A stretch of 64,000 bases of DNA from Chitinophaga niabensis (GCA_017849435.1 JAFIGY010000020.1:119425-183424), one strand, 5' to 3'. Positions 6,946 to 32,274 are shown, counted from the first letter of the stretch. The notes: a model not told the origin generated them from the letters alone. Made by a program: numbers and translations.

Positions 6946-8625
6946 TTAATTCCCCTCTCCGAAATTCGGATTCGTTTTATCGAACCACAACCGTTGCCCG
7001 CTTAAAGAAGGAATACTCCGGTCACCGGGCGTGAAACCCTGATCCTGTTGCGCCTTCTGCCAGTTTGCGGTATTTGTGCCTAAAGGCGGTTCATCTACCG
7101 GAAATCTGCGTGGGATGGGCTCATTCCAGGCATTGCGTTTATAGTAGGAGGAATTGTTTTTCGGATAACCTGTTCTTCTGCAGAAAGTAAACGCTTCATT
7201 ACCCAGGCGATAAAAATTCAGGTACTCCTGGATGTAAATCCGCTCCAGGTCGTTCACGCCATTGAGCTTTACATTGGGTTGCGCCTGATAAGCCTGTACC
7301 TCCGCATTACCATTGCCGGTGAACCCTGTTGTAGATTCCGCCGCTATGGCAATGTTATTCATGGTGCGGATAGAAGCCTCAATTCCCCGGTTGTACCAAT
7401 ACGCTGCATTACCCTTCGTGTCAAATCCCGCTCCATATCCTTTCTGGATGAACTCCGCGATATAGAAACAGGTTTCCGCCCAGGTGACCATATAGTCCAG
7501 CATGCGGCCGGTGGTGTTGGTACCATATCGCGGGGCGAAGAACTTCTTGTTGATATTTCCAAACAAACGGTATTTGTTTCCGCCTCCGGCATCGAAAGTG
7601 GTTTTGTACCAGGTAGCGGCGGCGGGGTCGGTGGTCCAGTCTGCCGGGCCGCCCTGGAACATGACCAGCGGATCATTGACGTTGATAAATGCCGGCAGTG
7701 TTTTACCGTATTTGGCCAGTGTATCTTTAAATGATCCCGTGAGATCGTTCGGACTGAAATAGATCGTTAATCGCGGATCGTTGGTGGATTTGAGGAAATT
7801 GATAATGGATGAAGTGCCGAAGCGCGGACTGCGATAGTCGATATCATTCCCGATGGGGTTGTGCTGCGGCTTGTCGTAAACAAACTGCGCCGCATCGCTG
7901 TCTATCGGTCCCAGCGCGCTCGTCATCACTTCTTTGAACACCCGTTTCGTCACATTTGCATCCTGCTTCTCATACCGAACGGCTATACGAAGTTTCAGTG
8001 TATTGGCCAGTTTCGCCCAGCCGGTCCAGTCATTCTTATAGAAGAAATCTGCGGAGCCGAAGTTAACCTGACCGGTAGCGGCAGCGGAGAGGGAATCCAC
8101 GGCTGTGCTCAATTCTGTGAGCCAGGTGTCGAACAGTTTTTTCTGTTCATCATATGCCGGCGTGAAAACCCCGTCTGTTCTGCCTCTCGCAGCTTCTGTA
8201 TAAGGAATGGATCCATTCATGTCCGTTACTTTCAGGCCATGATAGATCTGCGCGACCAGCGTAGCGGCGCGAATGTTCCGGTAGCGGTTCTTATCTGCTT
8301 TCGCATCCACCTGTTTGCGTATCTCGAACAGGTTTGGAAGGATGTTGTTGTAATATACCCGGTAACGGGCATTCGTGTTATTGGACAGCTCGTAAGGGTC
8401 CGTTGTAAGATGTTGTGTAAAACGCAGCAACTGTTCCAGGTTCTCCCATACCCATTCCGTACCCTGATAACTTTCCAGGTTCTCGAGGGAATAAGCGAAC
8501 AATGCGTTAATATCCGGCGACGTCACTACGCTGGGGTCTGTATTGGTCTCCCCGAAATCTTTCCTGCAGGAAGTTGCATACAGGAGTGCGGTAGTGATGA
8601 ACGTATATATGACAAGTTTTTTCAT
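6946..8625 (-). CDS. SusD/RagB family nutrient-binding outer-membrane lipoprotein
   Basis: 559 aa with a lipoprotein signal ending ALLYATSC. It starts 25 nt downstream of the SusC-like gene. Composition and length fit the SusD-like family. Confidence 0.85.
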   Translation of the reverse strand: MKKLVIYTFITTALLYATSCRKDFGETNTDPSVVTSPDINALFAYSLENLESYQGTEWVWENLEQLLRFTQHLTTDPYELSNNTNARYRVYYNNILPNLFEIRKQVDAKADKNRYRNIRAATLVAQIYHGLKVTDMNGSIPYTEAARGRTDGVFTPAYDEQKKLFDTWLTELSTAVDSLSAAATGQVNFGSADFFYKNDWTGWAKLANTLKLRIAVRYEKQDANVTKRVFKEVMTSALGPIDSDAAQFVYDKPQHNPIGNDIDYRSPRFGTSSIINFLKSTNDPRLTIYFSPNDLTGSFKDTLAKYGKTLPAFINVNDPLVMFQGGPADWTTDPAAATWYKTTFDAGGGNKYRLFGNINKKFFAPRYGTNTTGRMLDYMVTWAETCFYIAEFIQKGYGAGFDTKGNAAYWYNRGIEASIRTMNNIAIAAESTTGFTGNGNAEVQAYQAQPNVKLNGVNDLERIYIQEYLNFYRLGNEAFTFCRRTGYPKNNSSYYKRNAWNEPIPRRFPVDEPPLGTNTANWQKAQQDQGFTPGDRSIPSLSGQRLWFDKTNPNFGEGN

Positions 8626-8650
8626 GATGCCTCTTTTAAGTGTTTAACGA

Positions 8651-11600
8651 TCAGAATCCTGCGCGAATGGTAAATCCAAAGGAACGTGTCATGGGAGGCA
8701 CAAAGCCTTCTTCCTTGTTCACGCTTGTTCTGTTGGAATTGTTCGAGGCGGGATTGAAATGGTTCGGTAAAGTATTGTAGAGGTAGAAAAGATCACGGCC
8801 GATGAGGCTTGCGCTAAGGCTGGTCAGATGCAGCTTTGCGGCAATGCTTTGCGGCAGCGTATAATTCAGGGCCAGCTGGCGGAGGGATATCCAGGAGTTT
8901 TCCACTACCCAGTAATCGCCTACCGCTGTGGAAAAAGAACCGTAACGGTAACTGAATTGCGGGAGGTGTGTGGGCTCCACGTATCCTTTTTCATACGCCT
9001 GCCGGAAGGTCATACCACTTACGTCTACCTGCGTACCGTCCGGCTGTGTGATTTTCTGACCATTGTCGAACACACCATCGGGAATAATGCCATCGTCGTA
9101 GGTTTTGTTATCATATTTGCTTGTCCATACGATGCCGCCATGGTCTTTATCCCGGCCAAAAAGCGAGCTTTTAAAGATGCCGGTATGCGTGCCGTAGCGC
9201 ATGGAGTACATCACCATATCCCCGCCGATCTTGGCATCCAGCAGTACATTGAGGGAGAAGTTCTTATAGCGGAAGGTATTATCCCAGCTGCCGCGGAACT
9301 TGGGGTTGATGTCTCCCACATCCATCAGCACATTACTGCGTTTGGGGAATGCGGCGCGTGCGTCGGAACGCCAGTCCAGCACTACTTTCCCGTTATTAGG
9401 ATTATCCACCGCTTTACCGTTGGCATCCACTGCCTGGTAGCTTTTGGAATGAATACGTGTTCTGATGATCCCGTAAGCGCCGCCTACTTTGGCATAAGGG
9501 ATCTGATCATTCCCGGCGTTGTTCTCATCTTCCAGCGCATAGTATTCACGGTCGCCATACAGGTCGATCACTTTGTTACGATTTCGTGCATAGCTGACCG
9601 TTGAATTCCATTCGAAGTTCTTAGACCGGAAAGGCGTTCCGTTCAAAGCGATCTCCACACCTGTATTCTGCAGGTTACCGGCATTGATCAGCAGGTTGTT
9701 CACACCTGTTTCCGGAGCAGCGGGAATTTTGATGCCCTGGTTGTAGTTGTTATCCCGGTATACAGTTACATCGACCCCTAAGCGATCGTTGAGGAAACGC
9801 AGGTCCAGCCCCACTTCCTTGGCGATCTTGCGGAGCGGCTTGATATTCTTGTCCACCATGTAGGATTGCCCTTTATCATCCAGAACATAGGTCAGCAGCG
9901 GAATATTCCCGCCTCCTGCCTGTCCGAACCCACGCAGCGAAAAGCCGGGATTGATGATGAAAGGATCCACATCCCCGCCCAGCGCCGCAATGTTCGTGCG
10001 CAACTTACCGAAGGAAATGAATTTGGGCAGGTGGAAGGTTTCTGTGAAGATCCAGGAGAGGCTGACAGCTGGGTAATTGAAGAAATTATTGCCCGTGCCG
10101 TTAGTATATGTGAGTGCAGATGACCAGTCCCCGCGCCAGGTGGCCTGCAGGAACAATTGCTCCTTATATCCGAGGTCTGCGCTGGCGTAGATGGAGTTAA
10201 AGGTCTTCCTGGTTTTAATCCCCCCTTTTGCGATCTGCGGTTTCTGCGAGTTGTCCAGGAAATAGTTTCCGGGAAATATCAACCCGCCATCTGTTTCAGA
10301 GTAGTTATAGGATTGGGAATAGCGTTGCGTTTCACCGCCTACATAGCCATTGAAGGTAAGGTCTTTGGTAATAGGCTTGTTCACGATGGCCATCCATTTC
10401 AGGAAATAGCTTCGTTTGTTGGAATGGCCCAGTCCGTATTTTCCTCCTGCGGTATTATCATTCGAGCCGGTGAAATTGTATCCCTGCCCGAGTTCTTTCG
10501 TTTCATTCTGAATGGACAGGTTGCTGAGGTTCCCTTCCAGCTGTAGTTTCAGCCAGTTGGTCACATTGGCGTTGATGGTCAGGCGGCCGCGGAACATTTG
10601 CTCGTTCTGTAAATAATTGTTTTCAAAGATCCGGAACCAGTAATCCGCACCCGGCACCACATTGGTTTCCGCAGGATCATATACCTTCGGCACACCGCCA
10701 AGGGTGCTGGTATATTTGCTGCGCTGTTTCCAATACTTTGTATCGTAGTTGCGGGGGAATATCCAGATGTAATTGTTAAGACCCAGTTGCGGAGGGTTCT
10801 CTCCTTTCAGGCTGGTATAGTCTGCTCCTGCGTCGAGGGTGATAAAGCTGGTCAGGTTATGGGTGGCGCGCAGGGAGAAGGCATTCTTGTTCATCTTGTT
10901 CCGGAAATTGATCCCTTCTGCCTGGTTGCGGGAGTACGACAAACGGAAGGAGGACTTATCCGTTGCTCCATCCACTGCTACATTTGTTACATAGCCCAGT
11001 CCGGTCTGAAATGCATCCAGGTAGTTATTCGGTACAGCTTTATACTCCGTCCACGTACCATCATAGTTCCTTACTTTCTGGTTCGCGAATCGGGGCCCCC
11101 AGTTCTCCAGTTCCCTGTTCTTCTGCGGATCGATATAGGGTTCACCGGCGCTGTTGGTGGGAAAGACCTTCGTTTCCCAGTTCTGATCCGGTTTATAGCC
11201 CGGGTCACGGGTATCTGTGAAGAAAGCGCCTACCGATCCTCCTCCGTATTCATTTTGAAAATCAGGCCCGCGATAGGGTTGCTGTACATTGATGGTTTGC
11301 GACAGGCTTACTCCCCAACCTTTTTTCATACGGCCTTTCTTGGTAGTGATCAGTACCACGCCGTTAATTGCACGGGAACCGTACAATGCAGCGGCAGCGG
11401 AACCTTTAAGAATGGAAACGCTTTCAAACTCCTCCATGTTCAGGTTCTTCAGATCATTTCCGAAGTCCCGGCCCTTGCCGTCGAATGCATCATTATCCAT
11501 GATCACACCATCTATTACAAAGATCGGCTGGTTATTGGTGCTGAGGGTGGAGTTACCGCGGATAAGGATGCGGGAATTCCCGAACAATCCGCCGGAACCC

Positions 11601-12379
11601 TGATCAATACTAACGCCCGCGGCTTTCCCCTGTAATGCGTTGATCGGGTTCACTTCGTTAGTGGCGGCAACATCCGCTCCCTTTATTTCCGTCACGGAAA
11701 AACCCAGTGCACGTTTCTCTTTTTTAACCCCCAATGCCGTTACCACCACTTCTGCAAGCTCCTTTTTAGATTCCTGCAATACGATATCATAAGTCGCGGC
11801 ACTGCCTACCACCACTTCCTGTGTGGCAAACCCAATAGCGGAGAACACCAGCGTAGCGCCTTCTTCCGCATCGATCTGGTAACGTCCTTCTGCATTGGTC
11901 ACGGCGCCTTTCGCCGTTCCCTTCACGGCAACCGTTACGCCCGGCACCAGTGTTCCATCTGCGGCTTTCACCACACCGGTAATCCGTTTAAACCGGGCCA
12001 CAGGCTCATCTCCCGGGATCACCATCTTCATGCCGTTCCGCTGGATAATGATCTGGTTACCTACTACTTCATAAGAGACCTTGTAGGGAGCCAGCAATGT
12101 TTTCAGCACATCGCCGAGTCGTTCGTCTGCTACTTCAAGACTTACCTTGTTCGCCAGCGGTATGGTTTGTGAGGAATAGGCAAACTTCACGGCAGCAGCC
12201 TGCTCGATTCTGCCTAATACATTCTTGAGGTTTTTGTTGGCAACAGAAAGCGTGATCTTCTTGTCCAGCAACCCCTGCGCTTTTACACTCCTGGCGGAGG
12301 CGGCACTCATCAGTGCCAGTAACAGGCATAGCTTTAACAGCGCTACCCGCATCGTGAATGGAACGGTAATCATACGCAT
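8651..12379 (-). CDS. SusC/RagA family TonB-linked outer-membrane transporter with N-terminal STN signalling domain
   Basis: 1242 aa. Order is signal peptide, STN-like segment (LKNVLGRIEQAAAVKFAYSS...VSYEVVGNQIIIQR), carboxypeptidase-regulatory-like domain (ITGVVKAADGTLVPGVTVAVKGT), plug, then a beta-barrel ending FGFTIRAGF. Confidence 0.9.
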   Translation of the reverse strand: MRMITVPFTMRVALLKLCLLLALMSAASARSVKAQGLLDKKITLSVANKNLKNVLGRIEQAAAVKFAYSSQTIPLANKVSLEVADERLGDVLKTLLAPYKVSYEVVGNQIIIQRNGMKMVIPGDEPVARFKRITGVVKAADGTLVPGVTVAVKGTAKGAVTNAEGRYQIDAEEGATLVFSAIGFATQEVVVGSAATYDIVLQESKKELAEVVVTALGVKKEKRALGFSVTEIKGADVAATNEVNPINALQGKAAGVSIDQGSGGLFGNSRILIRGNSTLSTNNQPIFVIDGVIMDNDAFDGKGRDFGNDLKNLNMEEFESVSILKGSAAAALYGSRAINGVVLITTKKGRMKKGWGVSLSQTINVQQPYRGPDFQNEYGGGSVGAFFTDTRDPGYKPDQNWETKVFPTNSAGEPYIDPQKNRELENWGPRFANQKVRNYDGTWTEYKAVPNNYLDAFQTGLGYVTNVAVDGATDKSSFRLSYSRNQAEGINFRNKMNKNAFSLRATHNLTSFITLDAGADYTSLKGENPPQLGLNNYIWIFPRNYDTKYWKQRSKYTSTLGGVPKVYDPAETNVVPGADYWFRIFENNYLQNEQMFRGRLTINANVTNWLKLQLEGNLSNLSIQNETKELGQGYNFTGSNDNTAGGKYGLGHSNKRSYFLKWMAIVNKPITKDLTFNGYVGGETQRYSQSYNYSETDGGLIFPGNYFLDNSQKPQIAKGGIKTRKTFNSIYASADLGYKEQLFLQATWRGDWSSALTYTNGTGNNFFNYPAVSLSWIFTETFHLPKFISFGKLRTNIAALGGDVDPFIINPGFSLRGFGQAGGGNIPLLTYVLDDKGQSYMVDKNIKPLRKIAKEVGLDLRFLNDRLGVDVTVYRDNNYNQGIKIPAAPETGVNNLLINAGNLQNTGVEIALNGTPFRSKNFEWNSTVSYARNRNKVIDLYGDREYYALEDENNAGNDQIPYAKVGGAYGIIRTRIHSKSYQAVDANGKAVDNPNNGKVVLDWRSDARAAFPKRSNVLMDVGDINPKFRGSWDNTFRYKNFSLNVLLDAKIGGDMVMYSMRYGTHTGIFKSSLFGRDKDHGGIVWTSKYDNKTYDDGIIPDGVFDNGQKITQPDGTQVDVSGMTFRQAYEKGYVEPTHLPQFSYRYGSFSTAVGDYWVVENSWISLRQLALNYTLPQSIAAKLHLTSLSASLIGRDLFYLYNTLPNHFNPASNNSNRTSVNKEEGFVPPMTRSFGFTIRAGF

Positions 12380-12431
12380 ATTATTTTGGTTGACTTGAAT
12401 TGGCGGTTCTTCTGACGGAGGGGCGGAAAGA

Positions 12432-13490
12432 TCAGTTACATCCCTGCCCTGTTATATGGATCGTATCTTCAGTTACTTCATAAGTGGCGCCCAACACCTT
12501 GCACAGCACAGCCAGCTTGTCGTACAGCGATTCCTGGTCGAGAGATACGGTCACCCTGCATTTTGAGAACACGGCATGATCATATTGGATATCTGCAGCA
12601 TACATCCGCGCGAGCGTATCTATCACATCCCCTGCGGCGGCCTCATCAAAGTTCAGCACACCCTGTAAAGGCAACGGATTGCTCAGGAGCGCCATATTTG
12701 TGACATTCGTTTTTTCGAGAGTGTTGTTACTGCGGTTAAAAACTACCTGTTCATTCGGCAACAGGATGTAAGCCTCCGTTTCCGGGCGCTCCTTCCGCGA
12801 AACGGCCACCTTCCCTGACTTCACTGCTACCACAATCCTGTTCGCATCCGGATCGCTTTTTACACGGAAGCTGGTGCCTAATACCTTCGTCACAATACCG
12901 CCACTGTATACATAAAAAGGCCGGTCAGGGTCCCGTGCTACATCGAAGAAGGCCTCTCCTTCGAGCAGGACTTCCCGTTTGTTTGTGGGCGGGAGGCGGT
13001 TATAACGGACAGTACTGAGAGGGCTCAATGTGATGCGGGTACCGTCTGTAAGATAAATGACCTGCAGCCCCTTGCCTGTATTCCTGGCGATCGTTTCTCC
13101 CTTCTCATGCTTCTCCATCACAAAATAACTTAACGGAGCAGTGGCGGTCCGCGACAGCGCATACCACATGGCTCCCGCTCCCAGCAGCAGGATCACGGCC
13201 GCAGCGGTCAGGTACTTCTTCCAGGAAAGTTTTTTAACCGGCGTTTCCATTCCCACTGTTATCCGCTCCCATATCTGCGCTGCCAGTTCCGGGCTTCCTG
13301 CCTGCTCCGCTTCTGTTTCACGGATCATCACGATGATCTCCTGTGCTTTTTCGACCAAAGCAGGACGGTCCGGATGCTCCTGCATCCATTGATGCCAGCG
13401 GGCATCGTCCCCCGGTTGAGGAGCCGTGACCCAGCGAATGAATTCATCATGCTGCAACAGTGCTTCCAGTTCCTGTTTTGAATATGGCAT
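12432..13490 (-). CDS. FecR family anti-sigma factor / transmembrane sensor
   Basis: The preferred start is MPYSKQELEALLQHDEFIRW at 13490; the ORF-track start at 13547 is possible. There is a single TM helix (YLTAAAVILLLGAGAMWYAL) followed by a FecR periplasmic domain. The gene sits between the ECF sigma and SusC genes. Confidence 0.85.
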   Translation of the reverse strand: MPYSKQELEALLQHDEFIRWVTAPQPGDDARWHQWMQEHPDRPALVEKAQEIIVMIRETEAEQAGSPELAAQIWERITVGMETPVKKLSWKKYLTAAAVILLLGAGAMWYALSRTATAPLSYFVMEKHEKGETIARNTGKGLQVIYLTDGTRITLSPLSTVRYNRLPPTNKREVLLEGEAFFDVARDPDRPFYVYSGGIVTKVLGTSFRVKSDPDANRIVVAVKSGKVAVSRKERPETEAYILLPNEQVVFNRSNNTLEKTNVTNMALLSNPLPLQGVLNFDEAAAGDVIDTLARMYAADIQYDHAVFSKCRVTVSLDQESLYDKLAVLCKVLGATYEVTEDTIHITGQGCN

Positions 13491-13564
13491 GCGGAGAGAT
13501 TTTGCGCTTTTAATAACAAGTGTACCCGGGAAAGCCCGGATACTCATTTTTTGAAAACTTTTTT

Positions 13565-14146: not shown

Positions 14147-14234
14147 TCTATTGGATGACAGCTTTCATCAGTAAGGTAGGCAATATTTTTAAAACCAATA
14201 GGAAGAAAAAAGACCGGATCAGAAAAGCCCTTCG

Positions 14235-15740: not shown

Positions 15741-15743
15741 ATG

Positions 15744-18167: not shown

Positions 18168-18187
18168 TAAAATGATTCTTCCGGATA

Positions 18188-24861: not shown

Positions 24862-26574
24862 TCACAGATGGTAAAATTTCCAGTTCGTTTTAAAATCTCT
24901 CGTTAAAGGTTGCTTTAACAATATCGCTCTGACCATTTCCACAGGCATGGCATTTTCACGAATGATAGCATCATGGAACTGCTGGTAAGTCATTTTCCCG
25001 CTTTCCACCAGCTCTTTCCGCAATGCTTCAAACTGCAGACCACCGATCATATAAGCGACCTGATACAAAGGTCCATATCCTCCCGTGAAAGAACGGCGCA
25101 CCTCTCCTTCCGCGTTGGCACGTTCGTGATTGACACGGTCCACCAGGAAATCGATGCATTGCTGCGGCGTCCACTTACCGGTATGATAGCTGAGGGAAAA
25201 GATGATGCGCGCGCAACGATGCATCCGCCAGAAAAGCATGCCGATGCGATCTTCAGGAGACTGAGGAAATTTGAGATCCCACAAAAGCCGCTCCCAGTAC
25301 AAGGCCCAGCCTTCTATCCAGAAGGGAGTGTCGAAGTTCCGGTAGGACTTGTAACGCGCATTCATGAACTGTTGCAAAGCATGGCCCGCCAGCAATTCAT
25401 GATGAACCGTGGCACGGGAGAAATGCGGGTTATTGCCGCGCATGCTCATCATTTTATCATCGTGGCTCATGGTGTTGGTGGGATACGAAATGATGAACTC
25501 CTCTCCTCCGAGGAAAAAAGGGCTCACCAGCTGCCGTTCGGGAGACATCATGCTCATGCGCCAGGTCTCCTCGGCCAGCGGCGGTAATGTGATCAGATGG
25601 TGCTCTTTCAGGAAGGCAATGGATTCATTGTACAACTTCATCATCGCCTCCGGTTGTCTGGATGGCGGCACGAAAGTGTTCTTCACCTTTTCCACCGCAG
25701 CTTTCCAGTTATCTCCGAAACCCATTTCGCGGGAGGCTTTCAGCATCTCTGCATCACACCAGGCAAATTCCTTGTTCGCAATCGCGATCAGTTCTTCAGG
25801 CGTGTAAGGGATCATCTCCAGCTGCAACTGCCGGATGATCTCTTCCCTGCCGATAGGATAACCGATGATACCGCTGCCATCATCTTTCTGGGAGGAAGCA
25901 TTCTTTCCCTTTGCATTGAAGAGATTTGCATAATCTTCCAGCAGGCCGTCGAGGCGTTTATAAGGTGCAGGAACCCACCAGCTGAAGAGCGGATCGTAGC
26001 CATTGTAAAAATCATAAGTGCTTTTCAAAGCCGCCTGCAAACCCTTGGCAATACCGGAAGCCCTGCGGCTCAAGGCGAGAGAGAAAGAACTGTCTTTCTG
26101 CAGGGCTGCCTTCCTCTGCTCGATCTCTTTAGCGATATTGTTCAATTCCACTGCCAGCTTTTCCGCATCCGGCACAGTTCCCCGGCGACGGACCTTTTCG
26201 ATGGCATAAATGCGTTCTGCGAAAGGGAACCATTTTTCCACCTGCGTATATTCTTTCTTTTCCTGATCCAGCTGATACAATTCACTTTTCAGATCGCGCT
26301 GAAAAAGAGTGTAATCTACCCGCGAACCAACCGGCAATTGCTCGAAACCAAGCGCCGATAATCGCTTCAGATAATCCTCCTGCAGCGTCTTCATCCGTTC
26401 CCTGCGTTCGGGAGAATTGCGGATGGCGTAGAAGCGGTTCAATGCGCCTCTGTCCGCATAATACTGCACCATGATGTTATTCACCTCACTGGACTGGTTG
26501 TAAAGATCCGTATCCTGCGCATAGGTAAGGAACTGTGCCAGTAACAGACTGATACAGCAAAGCAGTTTTCTCAT
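24862..26574 (-). CDS. DUF885 domain protein (putative metallopeptidase-like), secreted
   Basis: 570 aa with signal peptide MRKLLCCISLLLAQFLTYAQ. It has a DUF885-type HExx(x)GH segment (TVHHELLAGHALQ). It is the last gene of the hydroxyproline operon, 19 nt from the previous gene. Confidence 0.7.
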   Translation of the reverse strand: MRKLLCCISLLLAQFLTYAQDTDLYNQSSEVNNIMVQYYADRGALNRFYAIRNSPERRERMKTLQEDYLKRLSALGFEQLPVGSRVDYTLFQRDLKSELYQLDQEKKEYTQVEKWFPFAERIYAIEKVRRRGTVPDAEKLAVELNNIAKEIEQRKAALQKDSSFSLALSRRASGIAKGLQAALKSTYDFYNGYDPLFSWWVPAPYKRLDGLLEDYANLFNAKGKNASSQKDDGSGIIGYPIGREEIIRQLQLEMIPYTPEELIAIANKEFAWCDAEMLKASREMGFGDNWKAAVEKVKNTFVPPSRQPEAMMKLYNESIAFLKEHHLITLPPLAEETWRMSMMSPERQLVSPFFLGGEEFIISYPTNTMSHDDKMMSMRGNNPHFSRATVHHELLAGHALQQFMNARYKSYRNFDTPFWIEGWALYWERLLWDLKFPQSPEDRIGMLFWRMHRCARIIFSLSYHTGKWTPQQCIDFLVDRVNHERANAEGEVRRSFTGGYGPLYQVAYMIGGLQFEALRKELVESGKMTYQQFHDAIIRENAMPVEMVRAILLKQPLTRDFKTNWKFYHL

Positions 26575-26593
26575 GATAAAAGATTTTGTGTAT

Positions 26594-27838
26594 TCAAAAA
26601 CGTTCAGGGTTAAAAGGCTGAATGTCCATACTCAAAGGAGTTTCATTTACCAGCTCGCTTACGAGTTTTCCGGTTCCCGCGCCCAAACTTAATCCCAGCA
26701 TGGAATGGCCTGTTGCCAGCACACAGTTGTCCAGCTTCTTCAACCGCCCGATATACGGCAAACCATCGGCAGAGCAAGGGCGATAACCAAACCATACCTG
26801 TTCTTTCGCCGGTAATGGTATATCATATTCCGGGATAAAATTCCTGACCGCCCGGAGAATACCCTTCACCCGGTTCATGTTCGGAGGAGCATTCAACCCG
26901 GTGATCTCCATGGTACCGCCAAAGCGGATCTTGTTGCCGTTCATCGGTGTGATGGCTACACGGCCTTCTGTGAGTATAGCCGGATGATGGAGATGGTAAG
27001 GCGCATCTTCGTAAGTTACCGAATATCCCCTTCCGCCTACCAATGGCAGATTCAGGCCTATCTTCGCTGCCATTTCCCGGCTCCATGATCCTGTTGCGAT
27101 CACTACCATGTCACTTTCGTATGTGCTTCTCCGTGTGGTCACTTTTTTTATCTTCCCCTCCCCTTGCTCAAAACCCGTCACTTCTTCATCCGGTACTAAT
27201 TGCACGTTTTTTTCCTTCAATATCTGCAACAGATTCCGCATGAGCTTATTGGGATAGAGATGTGCATCGCATTTAAAATAAATAGCGCCGAGGATATTCA
27301 GTTTTACCTGCGGCTCCAGGGCCTGCACCTGTTCAGCAGTAAGATATTCAGCATCCAGCCCCAATGCCAGCGCTTTTTCCACCGTATGATGCGCATGCTC
27401 TGCGTTCAACGGAGTCTGGAACATCTCCAGCAAACCTTTCTGTTCGTAAGCAAAATCAAATCCGGGTTGCCGTAGCCAGTCCTCGTACGTCCGCTTGCTC
27501 AGCACGGCAATATCCCGCAAAGGCACGGCACTGCGTTCCACATGCTGCGCATTGGCGCTGCGCATGAACTTCAAACCCCAGTCGATCAGCCCGAAGTTCA
27601 GACGGGGCTTCACGTAAAAAGGACTTTCAGGATTCAGCATCCACTTAAATCCCTGTTTCACGATGCCCGGCGCTGCCATGGGAATGAAATGGCTTGGACA
27701 AACATACCCTGCATTGCCATACGAGCAATTGTTCTGAAAATCGCCTTTATCGATCACGGTAACATTCCAGCCGCTTTGTTGCAGAAAGTAAGCCGAGCTT
27801 AATCCGATAATGCCTCCACCGATAACAATAACGTTCAT
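26594..27838 (-). CDS. FAD-dependent oxidoreductase (D-amino acid dehydrogenase family; candidate cis-4-hydroxy-D-proline dehydrogenase)
   Basis: The N-terminus has the dinucleotide fold MNVIVIGGGIIGLSSAYFL and the length is that of the DadA/DAO family. The specific role is inferred from operon context. Confidence 0.75.
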   Translation of the reverse strand: MNVIVIGGGIIGLSSAYFLQQSGWNVTVIDKGDFQNNCSYGNAGYVCPSHFIPMAAPGIVKQGFKWMLNPESPFYVKPRLNFGLIDWGLKFMRSANAQHVERSAVPLRDIAVLSKRTYEDWLRQPGFDFAYEQKGLLEMFQTPLNAEHAHHTVEKALALGLDAEYLTAEQVQALEPQVKLNILGAIYFKCDAHLYPNKLMRNLLQILKEKNVQLVPDEEVTGFEQGEGKIKKVTTRRSTYESDMVVIATGSWSREMAAKIGLNLPLVGGRGYSVTYEDAPYHLHHPAILTEGRVAITPMNGNKIRFGGTMEITGLNAPPNMNRVKGILRAVRNFIPEYDIPLPAKEQVWFGYRPCSADGLPYIGRLKKLDNCVLATGHSMLGLSLGAGTGKLVSELVNETPLSMDIQPFNPERF

Positions 27839-27853
27839 GCCTATACGATTTTT

Positions 27854-28867
27854 TTAAAGGACCTGGAATCCGTACGCATAGGGATCGTCATCCGGATCTA
27901 TGCTGATGGTGTTGTATCCGTAAACTCTTGCCCATCCTTCAATGCTCGGGCGGATAGCGGGCTTTCCGGCTACGGTGGTTTCTTCCTCTATACGCCCGGT
28001 AAACGTTGAACCGATGATACTTTCATGGATAAAGGCGTCTCCTTTCTTCAGCTTCCCCTTTGCGTACCATTGCGCCATGCGGGCGGAAGTGCCGGTACCG
28101 CAGGGGGACCGGTCAATGGCCTTGTCTCCGTAAAAAACGGCATTCCGCGCCGTAGAAGCCGGATCCATTACCGCGCCCGTCCACAATACATGCGAGCAAC
28201 CGCGAATGGTAGGATCGTCCGGGTGGACAAAACTATATTTTTCGTTGATGCGTTTCCGTAATTCCCTCGCCCAACTGATCAATTTATCCGCCGGATAATG
28301 CTCCAGCCCTGCAAAATTCCGTTGCACATCCACGATCGCATAGAAGTTGCCGCCATAGGACACATCAAACACCAACTCTCCCAGCTCAGGACAGTCTATG
28401 GTCAGATCAACAGCTTCGAGGAAGGAAGGAACGTTGGTCAGTTTCACGGAGCGCACTTTGTTACCGATGGTCTGGTAACTGATATGCACCAGTCCTGCCG
28501 GTGTCTCCATCCGCACCGTTCCATGCTGTTTCGGCAAAAGAAGCCCTTCTTCAATGGCGATGGTGATCGTGCCGATGGTACCATGGCCGCACATGGGCAG
28601 GCAGCCGCTGGTTTCGATGAACAGCACTGCAACATCATTCTGCGAATCGTGCGGTGCGTAGAGGATACTGCCGCTCATCATATCATGCCCCCGCGGTTCA
28701 AACATCAGGCCTTTCCGGATCCAGTCGAATTCTTCCAGGAAGTGCTGTCTTTTTTCGCTCATGTTATTGCCTTTCAGCACCGGTCCGCCTCCGGCTACCA
28801 GTCGTACCGGGTTTCCGCAGGTATGGGCGTCGATGCAGAAGAAGGTTTTTTTGCCTGAGGGTTTCAT
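27854..28867 (-). CDS. Proline racemase family protein, 4-hydroxyproline 2-epimerase type
   Basis: Both catalytic cysteines of the racemase/epimerase subclass are present: LPMCGHGTIG and DRSPCGTGTSA. Confidence 0.85.
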   Translation of the reverse strand: MKPSGKKTFFCIDAHTCGNPVRLVAGGGPVLKGNNMSEKRQHFLEEFDWIRKGLMFEPRGHDMMSGSILYAPHDSQNDVAVLFIETSGCLPMCGHGTIGTITIAIEEGLLLPKQHGTVRMETPAGLVHISYQTIGNKVRSVKLTNVPSFLEAVDLTIDCPELGELVFDVSYGGNFYAIVDVQRNFAGLEHYPADKLISWARELRKRINEKYSFVHPDDPTIRGCSHVLWTGAVMDPASTARNAVFYGDKAIDRSPCGTGTSARMAQWYAKGKLKKGDAFIHESIIGSTFTGRIEEETTVAGKPAIRPSIEGWARVYGYNTISIDPDDDPYAYGFQVL

Positions 28868-28898
28868 CTACTCAAAATAATAAAAAAGTAAAAAGATT

Positions 28899-30341
28899 TT
28901 ATGTGTTCTTCCATTCATTGTTCCAGAGCCGCCAGATCTTCCGCGGATTGGCGTTCTGCAATTCCGGCGGGAGCAATGCATCCGGAAATCCCTGGAAGCA
29001 GACCGGCCTCACCCAGCGCCGGATAGCGCCGGTGCCTACAGAGGTGAATCGCGCGTCCGTAGTGGCCGGATAAGGTCCCCCGTGTACCATGCTGCTGCAA
29101 ACTTCCACACCGGTAGGCACATCATTGATGATCACTCTGCCGGCCAGAGAGGTTTGCAATGCGATAATATCACGGTGCGCGGCAAGATCCGCGTCTGTTC
29201 CCATGATCGTGGCGGTAAGCTGACCTTTCACACTTTCCAGCACCTGCTTCATTTCGGTTTTATCCCTGCAAACCACTGCCAGTGAAAATGGACCGAAGAC
29301 TTCCTCTCTGAAATGCGGTGTGCTCAGGAAGCCGGCTGCACTTACGCGCGCCAGCGCAGGTGAAGGCATTACATCACTTTTAAAGATATGCCTGATCCCC
29401 TGCTGCTGCAACATCGTATGCAAACCCTCCGAATAATTGGACAGGATCCCTTCATGCAACATCTCCTGCGGCTGCACCGCGCTGATCTCTTCCCCCAGCT
29501 GTTGGAGAAATACTTCCAGCGCCTCACTTTCTACCGCCACCAGCAAACCGGGATTGGTACAGAATTGCCCCATGCCCAGGGTGATGGAGGCTGCGTATGT
29601 TTTGGCCAGTGCGAAGGCGTTTTGCCGAAGGGTGTCAGGCAGCAGCACTACGGGATTAATGCTGCTCATTTCGGCAAACACAGGTATCGGCCGCTCTCTT
29701 TCCGCTGCATAGTGTACCAGCGCAGTTCCCCCGTTGAGCGAACCGGTAAAGCCAACGCCGGTCGTATGAGGATGCATCACCAATTCCCGGCCTACAGTGT
29801 TTCCCGCTCCCAACACATGCTGTACGGTATGCGCCGGCATGCCTGAGTGCGCAATGGCCGCCTGTATTGCTGCAAAAACCAGTGAAGAAGTGCCGGCATG
29901 CGCAGAATGTCCTTTCACCACTACCGTTGAACCGGAAGCCAATGCACTGGCGGTATCACCACCTGCTGTCGAAAAAGCAAAAGGAAAATTACTCGCCCCG
30001 AAAACCACTACCGGTCCTACCGGCATCAACATCCGACGGGTATCGGGTTTGGGTGGCGTTCTGCCGGCATCCGCCGTATCAATGGCCGCATCTACCCAGC
30101 TTCCTTCCTGCAGCAGGCGGGCAAACATCTTCAGCTGGTTGATGGTACGACTCAGCTCTCCGTTCAAACGTGGCATGGGCAGATGTGTTTCCGCATGTGC
30201 TTTTGCCGTCAGCTCTTCCCGTCCCGCTTCCAGCTGTTCCCCGATATTTTCCAGAAAACGCGCACGTTGTTCCGGGGATGTTTGATGGTATTGTGTAAAA
30301 GCGGCCTGCGACCGCTGCATGATATCATTCACCTGGATCAT
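28899..30341 (-). CDS. Aldehyde dehydrogenase (NADP+) family; candidate alpha-ketoglutarate semialdehyde dehydrogenase
   Basis: 480 aa with the catalytic Cys motif GMGQFCTNPG and the EMSSINP glutamate segment. The ATG overlaps the stop of the upstream gene by 4 nt. Confidence 0.8.
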   Translation of the reverse strand: MIQVNDIMQRSQAAFTQYHQTSPEQRARFLENIGEQLEAGREELTAKAHAETHLPMPRLNGELSRTINQLKMFARLLQEGSWVDAAIDTADAGRTPPKPDTRRMLMPVGPVVVFGASNFPFAFSTAGGDTASALASGSTVVVKGHSAHAGTSSLVFAAIQAAIAHSGMPAHTVQHVLGAGNTVGRELVMHPHTTGVGFTGSLNGGTALVHYAAERERPIPVFAEMSSINPVVLLPDTLRQNAFALAKTYAASITLGMGQFCTNPGLLVAVESEALEVFLQQLGEEISAVQPQEMLHEGILSNYSEGLHTMLQQQGIRHIFKSDVMPSPALARVSAAGFLSTPHFREEVFGPFSLAVVCRDKTEMKQVLESVKGQLTATIMGTDADLAAHRDIIALQTSLAGRVIINDVPTGVEVCSSMVHGGPYPATTDARFTSVGTGAIRRWVRPVCFQGFPDALLPPELQNANPRKIWRLWNNEWKNT

Positions 30342-31267
30342 GATGCCGTTACGTTCAGTTTTTTGTATTCCGGTAATACTGGTCTGGTAGCCAGCGCCTG
30401 CTCAATGATCCCGAGGATACGCTTGCGCTCTTCACCCACCAGCGTGAGCCGGGGCGCTCTCACAAATTCACTGCCGATGCCTGTTTGCGCTTCCGCCAGT
30501 TTGATATACTGCACCAGCTTAGGATGAATATCCAGCTCCAGCAGTGGCATAAACCAGCGATAGAGCAGCAGGGCTTCCTGTATCTTTCCGGCTTTGATCA
30601 GTTTGTAAAGTGCCACGGTCTCCGCGGGGAAAGCGCACACCAATCCCGCCACCAGGCCGTCCGCGCCTGTTACGAGTTCTTCGAGGGTGAGGGTATCCAC
30701 TCCGCAAAGCAGACTGAAACGGTCTCCGAAGCGGTTCCGCATGCGGATCACGTTCGTTACATCGCGGGTAGATTCTTTCACTGCCTGTATATTATCGATC
30801 CCCGCCAGTTCTTCGAACATATCCGGCGTGATCTCCGTTTTGTAATCCACCGGGTTGTTATACAGCATGATGGGTAGCTCCGTGGAAGCGGCCACTACGC
30901 GGAAGTACTCCAGGGTTTCCCTGTCGTCGGAGCGATAGCGCATCGGTGGCAGCAGCATCAGGCCGGAAGCGCCCCATTTTTCGGCAAGGGCAGCCTGCTT
31001 CACCGCTTCTTTTGTTGCGCCTTCTGCAATATTAAGCACCACCGGTACTTTTCCGGCGATCTGCTGAACCGCATATTGCACGAGTTCCGCTTTTTCTTCC
31101 ACAGCAAGTGTGCTGGCCTCTCCCAGCGATCCGCCGAGGATCACACCTTCCACTCCCGCATCCAGTTGTGCCTGCAGGTTCTTGCCGAACAATGAAAGAT
31201 CCAGTTCATCCTCTGCTGTGAACTTGGTAGTGAGTGCGGGAAATACTCCCTTCCATCTGATTGCCAT
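30338..31267 (-). CDS. Dihydrodipicolinate synthase/N-acetylneuraminate lyase family; candidate Delta1-pyrroline-4-hydroxy-2-carboxylate deaminase
   Basis: DapA-family pattern (FPALTTKF, Schiff-base Lys in IQAVKEST). The preferred start is MAIRWKG at 31267, because a TAnnTTTG box overlaps the longer ORF-track start at 31285. Confidence 0.8.
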   Translation of the reverse strand: MAIRWKGVFPALTTKFTAEDELDLSLFGKNLQAQLDAGVEGVILGGSLGEASTLAVEEKAELVQYAVQQIAGKVPVVLNIAEGATKEAVKQAALAEKWGASGLMLLPPMRYRSDDRETLEYFRVVAASTELPIMLYNNPVDYKTEITPDMFEELAGIDNIQAVKESTRDVTNVIRMRNRFGDRFSLLCGVDTLTLEELVTGADGLVAGLVCAFPAETVALYKLIKAGKIQEALLLYRWFMPLLELDIHPKLVQYIKLAEAQTGIGSEFVRAPRLTLVGEERKRILGIIEQALATRPVLPEYKKLNVTAS

Positions 31268-31282
31268 TGATTTCTTTTTTTT

Positions 31283-31290
31283 CAAAAATA
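31283..31290 (-). promoter_or_regulatory. Bacteroidota -7 promoter box for the hydroxyproline operon
   Basis: Forward CAAAAATA reads TATTTTTG on the minus strand, 16 nt upstream of the ATG at 31267. Confidence 0.4.
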
Positions 31291-31348
31291 CCGGGAATGA
31301 CTTGTATCAGATAAGCGGTTTTTAATCAGTTCTACTCATATTTTGATC

Positions 31349-31389
31349 AAACAAAATTATTTTTTTGTGATTCGGGTTAAATTTTGTTT
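31349..31389. promoter_or_regulatory. 10-bp inverted repeat in the divergent hyp/AraC control region
   Basis: AAACAAAATT (31349-31358) and AATTTTGTTT (31380-31389) are exact reverse complements. The sequence is AT-rich, so chance is not excluded. Confidence 0.25.
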
Positions 31390-31401
31390 AAATTAGGGAT
31401 C

Positions 31402-32274
31402 ATGAAAGTATTACAGTTTACGATTCCTGTTGCCCATGAGAAAAACATCCTGGTACAAAAGGAGCACTTACCGCATTTCTATCCCCATTTTCATCGCCAC
31501 GACGAGATCCAGCTGACCTGGATACAACGGGGCAAAGGCACTCTTATCGCGGAAAACAGCATGCAAACTTTTCGTTCCAATGAAATATTCTGGCTGGCGA
31601 GCAATCAGCCGCATGTTTTTAAAAGTGATATGGAAGGGAAAATAACGCCGGAGGAAAAAGGCGTGCAGTCACTGACCATGTATTTCAATCCCAATGGCAA
31701 GCTCGCACCTGTATTTGAATTAACGGAACTGAAAAAGATCAGTCTTTTCATCCGGAAATTCTCGAACGGGTTCAAGGTACCCGACCATCATGTAACGGAA
31801 ATAGGCAGATTGATGGCGGATGTGGAACGTGCGCAGGGAGCGCGGCAGTTCATGTACTTCCTGTCGCTTTTAAGCTCGCTGCAATCCTTACCCGACCTGC
31901 AGCCGCTGGTATCGGGCTCCCAGCTGTCCAGCGTAAACGATGTGGAAGGTATCCGTATCGGCAATATCTATGACTACATCATGAAAAATTACGACACGGA
32001 TATCATGCTCGAAGATGTGGCCCGCCATGCCAATATGACTCCGCAGGCCTTTTGCCGGTATTTCAAGAAACATACGCGGTTGACCTTCGTGACCTTCCTG
32101 AATGAAGTGCGTATTCATGAAGCCTGTAAGAAACTCTCCGGCGGCATCAATGACAACATCTCCACCATTGCTTATCAAAGCGGGTTCAACAGCATCGCTA
32201 CATTTAACCGGGTATTCAAAAGCATCACCGGCAGGGCGCCGCGTGAGTATATGCGGGAGATGGCAGAAGGTTGA
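31402..32274 (+). CDS. AraC family transcriptional regulator (cupin-like sensor + HTH)
   Basis: The ATG at 31402 (MKVLQFTIP) is preferred over the TTG at 31384. The C-terminus is a double AraC HTH (LEDVARHANMTPQAFCRYFKK...IAYQSGFNSIATFNRVFK). Confidence 0.9.
   Translation: MKVLQFTIPVAHEKNILVQKEHLPHFYPHFHRHDEIQLTWIQRGKGTLIAENSMQTFRSNEIFWLASNQPHVFKSDMEGKITPEEKGVQSLTMYFNPNGKLAPVFELTELKKISLFIRKFSNGFKVPDHHVTEIGRLMADVERAQGARQFMYFLSLLSSLQSLPDLQPLVSGSQLSSVNDVEGIRIGNIYDYIMKNYDTDIMLEDVARHANMTPQAFCRYFKKHTRLTFVTFLNEVRIHEACKKLSGGINDNISTIAYQSGFNSIATFNRVFKSITGRAPREYMREMAEG

Follow-up and report, generated by a model that had tools for sequence, protein, structure and literature searches.

A 64,000-nt stretch of Chitinophaga niabensis DNA (the window) brings together, at positions 6946-32274, genes of the beta-L-arabinofuranosidase families, a secreted peptidase and SusCD-type uptake with a complete operon for hydroxyproline (Hyp) catabolism (Table 1). 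We consider this region to be, probably, one lineage-specific form of a modular and widespread Bacteroidota system for using Hyp-rich, O-arabinosylated plant glycopeptides. Comparison of gene neighborhoods supports functional coupling of the arabinosidase/peptidase/SusCD part to the Hyp operon over a chance association; the link appears real because many other soil Bacteroidota carry this gene set too, and often they interleave its members within a single operon. Such coupling of beta-L-arabinofuranosidases to a Hyp catabolic operon is apparently undescribed: as an earlier note on this DNA had supposed, a literature search found no account of beta-L-arabinofuranosidase/SusCD loci coupled with Hyp catabolism.

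ORF calling and searches of Pfam and NCBIfam confirmed the gene content of the cluster. The minus-strand string of GH127, M61, ECF sigma, FecR, STN-SusC and SusD genes that the earlier note had read from 18167 down to 6946 is present (ORFs, Pfam), as are the APC permease, the lipoprotein mutarotase, and the five-gene, minus-strand Hyp operon with DUF885 and a divergent AraC regulator (Pfam, NCBIfam). Signal or lipoprotein peptides were seen on SusD, SusC, M61, GH127, GH146, GalM and DUF885, and the same inspection of window proteins found none on the four Hyp enzymes, which is the division between secreted and non-secreted proteins first described. We also agree that araA, araB, araD and GH121 are lacking among the annotated ORFs of the 64-kb window, as are an alpha-L-arabinofuranosidase and an arabinose transporter.

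Table 1. Features of the C. niabensis cluster, in window coordinates.
Feature	Position	Strand	Basis
Terminator-like hairpin	6885..6909	-	10-bp stem, 7 GC pairs, T-run; just past SusD stop
SusD-like lipoprotein (SusD-like_2/SusD-like)	6946..8625	-	Pfam; lipoprotein signal
SusC-type TonB-dependent transporter, N-terminal STN signaling domain	8651..12379	-	Pfam STN, CarboxypepD_reg, Plug
FecR-type anti-sigma factor	12432..13547	-	Pfam FecR + FecR_C
ECF sigma factor, Bacteroidetes type	13565..14146	-	Pfam; NCBIfam TIGR02985/TIGR02937
Secreted M61 metallo-aminopeptidase	14235..15740	-	Pfam; HEYFH at residue 285
Secreted GH127 (GH127a), beta-L-arabinofuranosidase family	15744..18167	-	Pfam; weak C-terminal F5/8-type C domain
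APC-family amino-acid permease	18424..19857	+	Pfam
Lipoprotein aldose 1-epimerase (GalM; AraM-like periplasmic mutarotase)	19829..20965	-	Pfam; NCBIfam
GH146 gene (BT0349-like), interrupted	21162..23510	+	Pfam; in-frame TGA 22629-22631
AraR, NrtR-family L-arabinose-responsive repressor	23542..24252	+	Pfam NUDIX + NrtR_WHD + AraR_C (PF19368/PF21906)
Small ORF in 0.6-kb lineage-specific insert	24428..24799	-	No family assigned
Secreted DUF885 protein, zincin-like	24862..26574	-	Pfam; alignment; last gene of Hyp operon
FAD-dependent D-amino-acid oxidoreductase (DAO), putative D-hydroxyproline dehydrogenase/oxidase	26594..27838	-	Pfam DAO; conserved operon position
4-Hydroxyproline 2-epimerase (HypE)	27854..28867	-	NCBIfam NF010578 equivalog
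Aldehyde dehydrogenase (ALDH), putative alpha-ketoglutarate semialdehyde (KGSA) dehydrogenase	28899..30341	-	Pfam Aldedh; conserved operon position
DHDPS-family enzyme, putative delta1-pyrroline-4-hydroxy-2-carboxylate deaminase	30338..31267	-	Pfam DHDPS; conserved operon position
Conserved motif TTTAATCAGTTCTACTCATATTTT	31321..31344	+	Gibbs sampling on 9 AraC-divergent regions
AraC-family regulator	31402..32274	+	Pfam; divergent from Hyp operon

The string has the layout of a polysaccharide utilization locus (PUL). The susC-like and susD-like genes are neighbors (25 nt apart, by Pfam), GH127a lies on the same strand with the ECF sigma and FecR genes between it and SusC, M61 begins 3 nt after GH127a, and the strong terminator-like hairpin after SusD closes the string. 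GH127a consists of a catalytic domain (PF07944, 368 bits), a middle domain (PF20736, 77 bits) and a C-terminal domain (PF20737, 91 bits), and it shares at least 70% identity with its orthologs from Chitinophagaceae and Sphingobacteriaceae. Alignment to 6EX6 and 4QJY shows that the catalytic and Zn motifs GE (GAGEAFG), ETCA and CACC are conserved; work on HypBA1 assigned to these residues the roles of acid/base Glu, nucleophile Cys, and Zn-binding Glu and Cys. The best PDB match is 6EX6 (722 bits), which we take to be BT3674 of the Bacteroides thetaiotaomicron AGP PUL, and HypBA1 (3WKW) is a distant homolog at 309 bits. BT3674 is active on larch AG (PMC10850190). Because the GH127 family also holds an aceric-acid hydrolase (BT1003), specificity cannot be read from membership in it.

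The anchor of the Hyp operon is the epimerase, which scores 590 bits against NF010578 (cut-off 376) and retains the Cys93 (MCGH) and Cys256 (SPCGTG) pair. The DAO, DHDPS and Aldedh superfamilies share the operon with it, an arrangement kept in 12 other loci. The best NCBIfam matches of the aldehyde dehydrogenase are 2,5-dioxovalerate/KGSA dehydrogenases, far under cut-off, and the DAO protein has a D-amino acid dehydrogenase match, also below cut-off. Since no equivalog model scored above its cut-off for the DAO, DHDPS and ALDH proteins, their specific activities are assigned putatively from this context. In the fifth protein, DUF885, alignment reveals the invariant residues H392-E393-x3-G397-H398, E421-G422 and Y426-W427-E428; in other genomes its gene shares an operon with the Hyp genes, M61/DPP-IV or GH127-GH51. 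Orthologs of the AraC regulator (43-64% identity) adjoin GH127a-M61 (L084), DPP-IV-GH127a (L085), DUF885 (L123, L148) and GH127a (L135).

Between these two parts lie the permease, mutarotase, GH146 and AraR genes. The permease, for which the ATG in Table 1 is probably the true start, is already in the database as an identical 477-aa protein. In 17 of 80 genome loci its neighbor is DUF885, the Hyp operon or both, and this conserved proximity to the Hyp operon makes it a fitting candidate for an inner-membrane importer of Hyp, a Hyp dipeptide or a small Hyp peptide. The gene first described as a second GH127/146-like gene belongs to GH146, matching BT0349 (5OPJ) with 529 bits over residues 34-781, full length including the C-terminal DUF4986/DUF6805 region, but it is not intact. 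As a single in-frame TGA replaces a Trp that is conserved in the alignment with an intact ortholog, it is either a pseudogene or the product of a sequencing error. The accompanying Nudix-type regulator is a clear ortholog of BtAraR of B. thetaiotaomicron (5BS6, 235 bits over 215 residues), and AraM has been described as a periplasmic mutarotase (PMC4666351). The 0.6-kb segment that follows is indeed an insert, since in a relative (L170) the DUF885 stop lies 7 bp from the AraR stop, but its identification as HicB was not confirmed: the ORF has no HicB match in Pfam (E <= 0.01), NCBIfam, PHROGs or PDB, no HicA partner ORF was found beside it, and PHROGs returned one family of unknown function (E = 0.0015).

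The cluster carries three different kinds of regulator (ECF/FecR, AraR and AraC), and a search of the 64-kb window found no operator in common. The motif TTTAATCAGTTCTACTCATATTTT occurs 60-100 bp upstream of araC orthologs in most of the 9 divergent regions compared, and its sole strong site in the window is the one in Table 1. AraR-like palindromes are weak or degenerate in the window, where neither GH127a nor the ECF gene has one upstream, whereas relatives conserve them in the intergenic regions at GalM.

A synteny survey covering 160 anchored genome and metagenome loci revealed a core, composed of the Hyp operon, secreted DUF885, APC permease and AraC, that Sphingobacteriales, Cytophagales and Chitinophagales all keep. 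Added to it time and again are GH127, GH146, GH51/GH43, M61, DPP-IV and SusCD, and the resulting gene orders number at least 12. In the fully interleaved locus L135 the order is DHDPS-HypE-GH146-SusC-SusD-M61-DAO-<AraC-GH127a (GH127a 72%). Other arrangements are HypE-GH51-GH127-GalM-GH146-M61-DAO (L094), M20-GH51-GH127a-GH146-DUF885-M61-AraC-M1 (L106), GH127a-GH146-AraC-DUF885-APC-GH43 (L023, Mucilaginibacter), GH146-M1-Hyp operon-AraC-APC-DPP-IV (L015, Pedobacter), GH127-SusD-SusC<>APC..DUF885-Hyp operon (L045, L064) and GH97-GH127a-GH51-DUF885 (L173, Filimonas); arabinofuranosidase genes are likewise joined to the core in L089, L091 and L100. The earlier note had named a lack of synteny between the PUL part and the Hyp operon in related genomes as grounds for refutation; instead, the association recurs over three orders of Bacteroidota, in many gene orders that are independent of each other and that include interleaved operons. 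A GH127/146 gene lies within 10 kb in 7 of the 17 loci with Hyp genes or DUF885 and in 0 of the 63 without (Fisher p = 6e-6, ignoring phylogenetic non-independence), and the counts for M61-anchored loci are 4/10 versus 2/70 (Fisher p = 0.0017, with non-independence again ignored). Overall, of 80 metagenome loci with an M61 ortholog, about 20% place it beside DUF885, DPP-IV, GH127/146, Hyp genes or the permease, and about 80% have none of these partners.

Closer relatives are variable, and the association does not hold everywhere, a point against the Hyp-arabinoside reading. On the same chromosomal backbone, one Chitinophaga relative has DUF885><AraR-GalM-DPP-IV-ECF-FecR-SusC-SusD (L170; orthologous SusD 78%) and another has AraR-GH146-GalM-APC-AraC-DPP-IV-GH127a (L085). 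The GH127a ortholog of C. pinensis is isolated, and in C. alhagiae only AraR and GalM accompany the ECF-SusCD block. SusD shares 72-79% identity with its orthologs from other Chitinophaga and 61-73% with those from Pedobacter/Dyadobacter/Larkinella, and the SusCD orthologs of Pedobacter and Dyadobacter are isolated pairs. The ECF/FecR/SusCD block of the window is a candidate member of the proposed Hyp-arabinoside unit.

The CAZymes at the related loci are arabinose-only (GH127, GH146, GH51, GH43). In Hyp-Ara4, three beta-Araf residues carry an alpha-1,3 cap, and it is by its arabinose-only content that the CAZyme set matches this glycan. The gene content therein points to Hyp-Ara1-4 of the extensin, lectin or peptide-hormone type as the likely substrate class.

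Alternatively, the two parts may be loosely related neighbors: a Hyp-peptide module indifferent to substrate (the Hyp operon with AraC, DUF885, APC and prolyl/glycyl peptidases), serving any peptides that contain Hyp, soil-fauna collagen or gelatin among them, joined in a detritus regulon to GH127/GH146/AraR/AraM genes for the arabinose of arabinan, AGP or RG-II, so that the target would be plant and animal detritus and not one two-moiety molecule. We regard this as unlikely, though several observations fit it. The core order [DHDPS-ALDH-HypE-DAO]-AraC-DUF885-APC(-DPP-IV), found also in uncultured Sphingobacteriia/Chitinophagaceae (L045, L064), occurs with peptidases and without GH127/146 in many loci of Pedobacter (L014, L019, L054) and Dyadobacter (L068, L070, L077); M61, a glycyl aminopeptidase family, and DPP-IV suit Gly-Pro-Hyp repeats; the regulators in the window are separate and share no operator that we could find; and AraR regulons in Bacteroides span arabinan, arabinoxylan and pectic-galactan PULs (PMC4666351). 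The one-strand interleaved strings, however, put the genes for Hyp enzymes, GH51/127/146 and M61 into what looks like a single operon (L135, L094, L106), DUF885 belongs to the GH127a-GH51 operon in Filimonas and to the Hyp operon in other genomes, and arabinanase (GH43 endo), galactanase and pectinase are absent from these loci. The Pedobacter and Dyadobacter loci without GH127 would suit collagen-derived Hyp peptides equally. The nearest characterized glycosidase homologs act on AGP (6EX6) and pectic arabinan (BT0349), which fits the detritus regulon and is a point against the Hyp-arabinoside reading. Further points against that reading are the alpha-L-arabinofuranosidase, GH121, arabinose transporter and araABD genes missing from the window's annotated ORFs, its interrupted GH146, and its three kinds of regulator.

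Use of AGP instead of an extensin-type substrate, with GH127a trimming beta-L-Araf caps like BT3674 and the Hyp-rich AGP core peptide being catabolized, seems improbable. The 722-bit match to 6EX6 and the Hyp-rich nature of AGPs, shared with extensins, would suit it, but the galactanases needed for AGP are absent from the related loci: GH43_24/GH30/GH16 galactanase, beta-galactosidase, beta-glucuronidase and rhamnosidase occur in 0 of about 16 GH127/146-bearing modules. Hyp-O-galactan would then not be removable, so Hyp would not be freed.

That a rearrangement hot spot from DeoR-NT5C to GH109 gathered by coincidence an ECF-SusCD PUL, an arabinose module under AraR and an unrelated Hyp operon is already disfavored and very improbable, for although the interval is arranged differently in each of the Chitinophaga relatives compared (window, L085, L167, L170), contains a broken gene and a 0.6-kb insert particular to the lineage, and in C. 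alhagiae is without GH127, M61, APC and Hyp parts, the same families meet in distant genera in unrelated gene orders, both enrichments above speak against chance, and the pieces in the hot spot always come from one small set (DPP-IV or M61, GH127a, GH146, APC, AraC, DUF885).

Among known systems, the hypBA1-hypBA2-hypAA cluster of Bifidobacterium longum (GH127, GH121, GH43, ABC transporter) and XeHypBA1/BA2/AA of Xanthomonas euvesicatoria (PMC7263609, PMC6085000) have the same proposed substrate class, HRGP Hyp-arabinosides, and share with the window the use of a GH127-family cysteine beta-L-arabinofuranosidase with the same Zn/Cys/Glu motifs. The window's annotated ORFs do not place GH121 and GH43 beside GH127; GH146 and GH127 exo-enzymes are found instead of the GH121 beta-L-arabinobiosidase, and the GH51/GH43 alpha-L-arabinofuranosidase that could uncap Ara4-Hyp is encoded only in related loci. 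Uptake here is of the SusCD/TonB type, whereas B. longum uses an ABC importer of Ara2. Moreover, the HypBA systems harvest arabinose only, and according to the Xanthomonas paper that bacterium is unable even to use arabinose, whereas here peptidases and a complete Hyp catabolic operon are coupled.

The araMPRDAB/arabinan PUL of B. thetaiotaomicron shares AraR, an AraM-like mutarotase, a BT0349-like GH146 and SusCD uptake with the window, which lacks its araP, araA, araB, araD and arabinanases. In contrast to B. thetaiotaomicron PULs, including the one encoding BT3674, the enzyme nearest to GH127a, the window has ECF/anti-sigma in place of HTCS and its neighborhood includes peptidases and an amino-acid catabolic operon. 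The epimerase-route Hyp operons of Pseudomonas and Sinorhizobium contain the same four enzyme families in one operon, and the neighborhood study of the proline-racemase superfamily makes no mention of DUF885 (PMC4113996). Here regulation is of the AraC type, an APC permease takes the place of ABC/TRAP transport, secreted DUF885 is a fifth gene, and the operon is associated with glycosidases, peptidases and SusCD. In Bacteroides, SusCD loci linked to ECF sigma and anti-sigma factors target host O-glycans and glycoproteins. The window resembles them in that genes for an ECF sigma, a FecR-type anti-sigma and an STN-bearing SusC share a string with glycosidase and peptidase genes, but its CAZymes are plant-type (beta-L-Araf), not mucin-type, and it is linked to catabolism of the glycan-bearing amino acid.

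The first interpretation of this locus is therefore partly supported: its coupling is borne out, and Hyp-arabinosides are the substrate that the gene content suggests. For the proposed Hyp-arabinoside system, we infer how the steps follow each other, what DUF885, the permease and the SusCD pair do, and all regulation as follows. The STN-SusC/SusD pair would take up glycopeptides, with the transport signal passing from SusC through FecR to the ECF sigma factor. In the periplasm, the exo-acting GH127a (and GH146 when intact) would strip beta-L-Araf, and the AraM-like lipoprotein would mutarotate the freed L-arabinose, relieving AraR repression. Secreted peptidases (M61 here, DPP-IV/M1 in relatives, together with zincin-like DUF885) would cleave the deglycosylated Hyp-rich peptide, and the APC permease would bring in Hyp or a small Hyp peptide. 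In the cytoplasm, under control of the AraC-family regulator, the epimerase would convert trans-4-L-Hyp to cis-4-D-Hyp, the FAD oxidoreductase would yield delta1-pyrroline-4-hydroxy-2-carboxylate, the DHDPS-family deaminase alpha-ketoglutarate semialdehyde, and the ALDH 2-oxoglutarate.

A broader proposal, which we hold tentatively and with slightly more doubt than belief, is that this is a widespread regulon of soil and rhizosphere Bacteroidota, not described before and dedicated to plant Hyp-O-arabinoside glycopeptides, in which AraC senses Hyp or Hyp-Ara. If so, the regulon would consume both the glycan (as L-arabinose) and the glycosylated amino acid (Hyp to 2-oxoglutarate), DUF885 would be a new metallopeptidase specialized for poly-Hyp (polyproline-II) peptides, and GH127 and GH146 exo-enzymes would stand in for the bifidobacterial GH121 route.

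The gene list of the earlier note was recovered in full by ORF listing combined with Pfam and NCBIfam, and the remaining genes of the 64-kb window are unrelated housekeeping and two-component genes. ORF coordinates also reproduced the short GH127-M61 spacing that had been read from the sequence. As the note had stated for the glycosidases and peptidases, signal or lipoprotein peptides were seen on inspection of N-termini, here for SusC, SusD, M61, both glycosidases, the lipoprotein aldose 1-epimerase (GalM) and DUF885; the four hydroxyproline (Hyp) enzymes have no signal peptide. The proposed five-gene Hyp operon with a divergent AraC gene was likewise found. Its epimerase (HypE) passed the NCBIfam 4-hydroxyproline-epimerase equivalog (590 bits vs a cut-off of 376) and carries Cys93/Cys256, the pair of true epimerases, which together argue against a trans-3-Hyp dehydratase. 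The 477-aa permease product is also on record in metagenome contigs. No araABD, GH51, GH43 or DPP-IV gene was found within the window, and no α-L-arabinofuranosidase, GH121 or arabinose transporter gene appeared among its annotated ORFs, in line with the caveat already raised for araABD and GH121. Elsewhere in the window, an Rfam DUF805b RNA motif (56320-56354, minus strand; 45 bits vs a gathering threshold of 35.6) lies just upstream of an ORF at 55328-56299.

Features of the cluster and their window positions
Feature	Position	Orientation	Remark
GH127 (GH127a)	15744-18167	minus	first gene of string
M61 peptidase	14235-15740	minus	3 nt after GH127
ECF sigma	13565-14146	minus	
FecR	12432-13547	minus	
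STN-SusC	8651-12379	minus	
SusD	6946-8625	minus	last gene of string
Hairpin, 10-bp, GC-rich, with T-run	6909-6885		closes GH127-to-SusD string
APC permease	18424-19857; probable start ATG 18424	divergent from string	477 aa
Lipoprotein aldose-1-epimerase (GalM)	19829-20965	converges on permease	
Second glycosidase, GH146	21162-23510		TGA-interrupted
Nudix/wHTH regulator, AraR orthologue	23542-24252		
Small ORF	24428-24799		in 0.6-kb insert
Operon: DHDPS-family, ALDH, Hyp epimerase, FAD oxidoreductase (DAO), DUF885	31267 down to 24862		
AraC gene	31402-32274	divergent from Hyp operon	

The nearest PDB entry to GH127a is 6EX6 (722 bits), which we take to be BT3674 of an arabinogalactan-protein (AGP) utilization locus; HypBA1 is much farther away (309 bits). 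GH127a keeps the GE, ETCA and CACC catalytic/Zn motifs. The second glycosidase, previously described only as GH127/146-like, matches BT0349 over its whole length (5OPJ, 529 bits) and is a GH146 gene. Its reading frame is broken by a single in-frame TGA (22629-22631) at a conserved Trp codon. Recoding found no support, and in an intact orthologue (L085, 799 aa) this position is occupied by a TGG-encoded Trp. Because the gene is otherwise undamaged, the TGA points to a pseudogene of very recent origin or else to a base-call/sequencing error. The Nudix-type regulator reported earlier matches Bacteroides thetaiotaomicron AraR (5BS6, 235 bits) and can now be assigned as its orthologue. In B. thetaiotaomicron, AraR represses araMPRDAB and responds to L-arabinose; among the products of this operon is the periplasmic mutarotase AraM (PMC4666351). 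Given the orthology and this precedent, GalM, GH146 and AraR form a predicted arabinose-responsive module.

The 0.6 kb that separates AraR from DUF885 had been called a HicB insert. It is a true insert, since the two stop codons are only 7 bp apart in the relative L170. The HicB label found no support, as the small ORF matched no HicB model in Pfam, NCBIfam, PHROGs or PDB; its single-sequence AlphaFold model (pLDDT 48) was unusable.

We then examined how often these genes occur together across Bacteroidota, comparing window proteins by tblastn and blastp. A permease-anchored scan (one genome per species, 80 loci kept) revealed a conserved core, [DHDPS-ALDH-HypE-DAO]-(AraC)-DUF885-APC, often followed by a DPP-IV-type S9 peptidase (Pfam). 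This core was seen in Pedobacter, Dyadobacter, Olivibacter, Mucilaginibacter and C. polysaccharea, and also in uncultured Sphingobacteriia and Chitinophagaceae. GH127 or GH146 lay within 10 kb in 7/17 permease loci with Hyp genes or DUF885 vs 0/63 without (Fisher p = 6e-6, which ignores shared ancestry and is indicative only). About one fifth of the loci in an M61-anchored scan of metagenome contigs (80 loci kept) carry partners from the set, with GH127/146 in 4/10 of those with Hyp genes or DUF885 vs 2/70 of the others (p = 0.0017, again indicative only because shared ancestry is ignored). The most telling loci (L135, L094, L106, L089 and L091) are single-strand, tightly spaced strings. We counted at least 12 distinct architectures, so the association arose or was kept many times. 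The synteny whose absence from relatives would have spoken against the earlier idea is therefore present, with the same gene set recurring in both scans.

Gene order in selected loci from other genomes and metagenomes (percentages are given for GH127a)
Locus	Gene order
L135	DHDPS-HypE-GH146-SusC-SusD-M61-DAO-<AraC-GH127a (72%)
L094	HypE-GH51-GH127-GalM-GH146-M61-DAO
L106	M20-GH51-GH127a (70%)-GH146-DUF885-M61-AraC-M1
L089	GH146-DUF885-M61-AraC
L091	GH127a-GH146-DPP-IV-M61-<DHDPS
L085	DeoR-BrkB / GH127a-DPP-IV / AraC-APC / GalM / GH146-AraR / FGGY...
L170	DeoR-BrkB / SusD-SusC-FecR-ECF-DPP-IV-GalM / AraR / DUF885...
L167 (C. alhagiae)	DeoR-BrkB / SusD-SusC-FecR-ECF / GalM / AraR / GH109-S51
L084	AraC <> GH127a-M61

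The ECF-FecR-SusCD block of the window is the part least securely attached to the module. Its orthologues in Pedobacter and Dyadobacter are isolated SusCD pairs, and in C. alhagiae its sole neighbors are AraR-GalM. In L170, a second lineage with orthologous SusCD, AraR-GalM-peptidase-ECF-FecR-SusCD directly adjoins the Hyp operon at its DUF885 end. Elsewhere the module contains SusCD pairs that are not orthologous to those of the window, namely in L135, L045, L064 and L004 and in three Dyadobacter-type loci (L122, L125, L130). These last three, from Dyadobacter-like metagenomes, also encode a 1258-aa hydantoinase/oxoprolinase fusion and an Nramp-like transporter (e.g., L130:4581-9559) between Hyp operon-APC and M61-SusD-SusC-AraC, which may add a ring-opening or transport function. 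In two uncultured lineages, a gene for a multihaem cytochrome c-like protein of ~410 aa (L045:11388-12626, L064:11426-12652) separates the permease from the DUF885-Hyp operon; its product may serve as electron acceptor for D-Hyp dehydrogenase.

For the permease, GH127a and SusD, the highest similarity was to proteins of Chitinophaga. Relatives keep the flanks on one side (AlkZ, DEAD helicase, 3-keto-disaccharide hydrolase, NT5C, DeoR) and on the other (GH109, S51), and the interval between them varies in each relative, with the variable pieces always drawn from one small set. The interval from DeoR-NT5C to GH109-S51 (6133-6879 to 32334-33797 in the window) is a Chitinophaga rearrangement hot spot, where each of four relatives has its own combination of the same modules (L085, L167 and L170 among the loci cited); BrkB, which adjoins DeoR in relatives, is absent from the window. 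Two flanking genes, a 3-keto-disaccharide hydrolase family gene (4676-5467) and a TAT-signal GH109/GFO-IDH-MocA oxidoreductase (32334-33797) with weak NCBIfam similarity to glycoside 3-dehydrogenases, look like backbone rather than cluster parts.

Three regulators coexist in the window (ECF/FecR, AraR and AraC). A 24-nt AT-rich motif, TTTAATMAnTTnTTnnCnnATATT, lies 60-100 bp upstream of araC orthologues in the window (31321-31344), L004, L084, L123, L135 and L148, and is a candidate AraC operator or araC promoter; in L084 and L135 it falls within the intergenic region shared with GH127a. Within the window this is the only strong site, none being found upstream of GH127a/APC, the ECF gene or GalM, so the motif gives no evidence of one regulon here; no operator shared by the whole cluster was found. 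AraR-like palindromes occur in relatives in the intergenic regions next to GalM; in the window they are degenerate, and the PUL string has none upstream of it.

DUF885, placed by Pfam in the zincin clan (PMC12572635), has an H-E-x3-G-H ... E-G ... Y-W-E pattern that is invariant across 13 orthologues. PDB profile and sequence searches returned only uncharacterized structural-genomics entries (3IUK, 3O0Y, 3U24), the single-sequence AlphaFold model had a pLDDT of 42.6, and no characterized member was found in the literature searched. It is the sole gene seen both within Hyp operons and within GH127-GH51 operons, which makes it the leading candidate for linking the two halves by cleaving Hyp-rich peptides. 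Filimonas lacunae (L173:10001-16728) has a tightly packed GH97-GH127a (73%)-GH51-DUF885 string, in which DUF885 is co-operonic with arabinofuranosidases even though Hyp genes are missing from the 10 kb on either side. The APC permease likely imports Hyp or a Hyp dipeptide, because no other inner-membrane transporter is conserved in the core and the Hyp enzymes are cytoplasmic.

The earlier note had read the arabinofuranosidase/peptidase/SusCD string and the Hyp operon as one Hyp-arabinoside utilization cluster. Judged from the co-localization scans, their coupling is real and recurrent; the substrate and mechanism we infer. The closest characterized relatives of the window glycosidases are active on AGP (GH127a) and arabinan (GH146); the loci contain no galactan-, pectin- or arabinan-backbone enzymes, which makes it less likely that AGP or arabinan is the main substrate. 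The peptide/Hyp core may be substrate-agnostic, with the arabinofuranosidases a plant-specific add-on, since core loci without glycosidases could equally serve collagen peptides. Extensin-type Hyp-Ara4 consists of three β-L-Araf capped by an α-1,3-Araf. The only CAZymes in these loci are arabinofuranosidases, GH127 and GH146 (β-L) and GH51 or GH43 (α-L), a set that would be enough to strip Hyp-Ara4, and they are accompanied by M61, DPP-IV, M1, M20 and secreted DUF885 peptidases. We consider utilization of Hyp-arabinoside glycopeptides moderately probable.

The Hyp-arabinoside systems of Bifidobacterium longum and Xanthomonas euvesicatoria release arabinose only and use GH121; in contrast to the loci described here, neither peptidases nor Hyp catabolism is tied to them (PMC7263609, PMC6085000). 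In a Latescibacteria paper, GH127 is listed as an enzyme family for deglycosylating extensin, with no tie to Hyp catabolism, and a proline-racemase neighborhood study mentions neither DUF885 nor glycosidases. Hydroxyproline epimerase and arabinofuranosidase were not found together in the literature searched. Within this literature, the claim that no PUL coupling β-L-arabinofuranosidases to a Hyp operon has been described holds, and the union of a PUL with an operon for amino-acid catabolism is apparently not yet described.

Extensins and other hydroxyproline-rich glycoproteins (HRGPs) are a large, protease-resistant plant cell-wall pool of carbon and nitrogen. We know of characterized Hyp-arabinoside systems only in Bifidobacterium and Xanthomonas, both of which stop at arabinose release. 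If the proposed function is true, this would be the first (SusCD-based) glycopeptide utilization locus uniting glycan and aglycone-amino-acid catabolism, and the large DUF885 family would gain a function. The retention of Hyp-arabinosidases by bacteria that do not consume arabinose could also be explained in this way. Related loci occur in the culturable genera Chitinophaga, Pedobacter, Mucilaginibacter and Filimonas, and would provide rhizosphere ecology with a genetic marker of HRGP turnover, possibly also of the breakdown of Hyp-arabinosylated plant peptide hormones.
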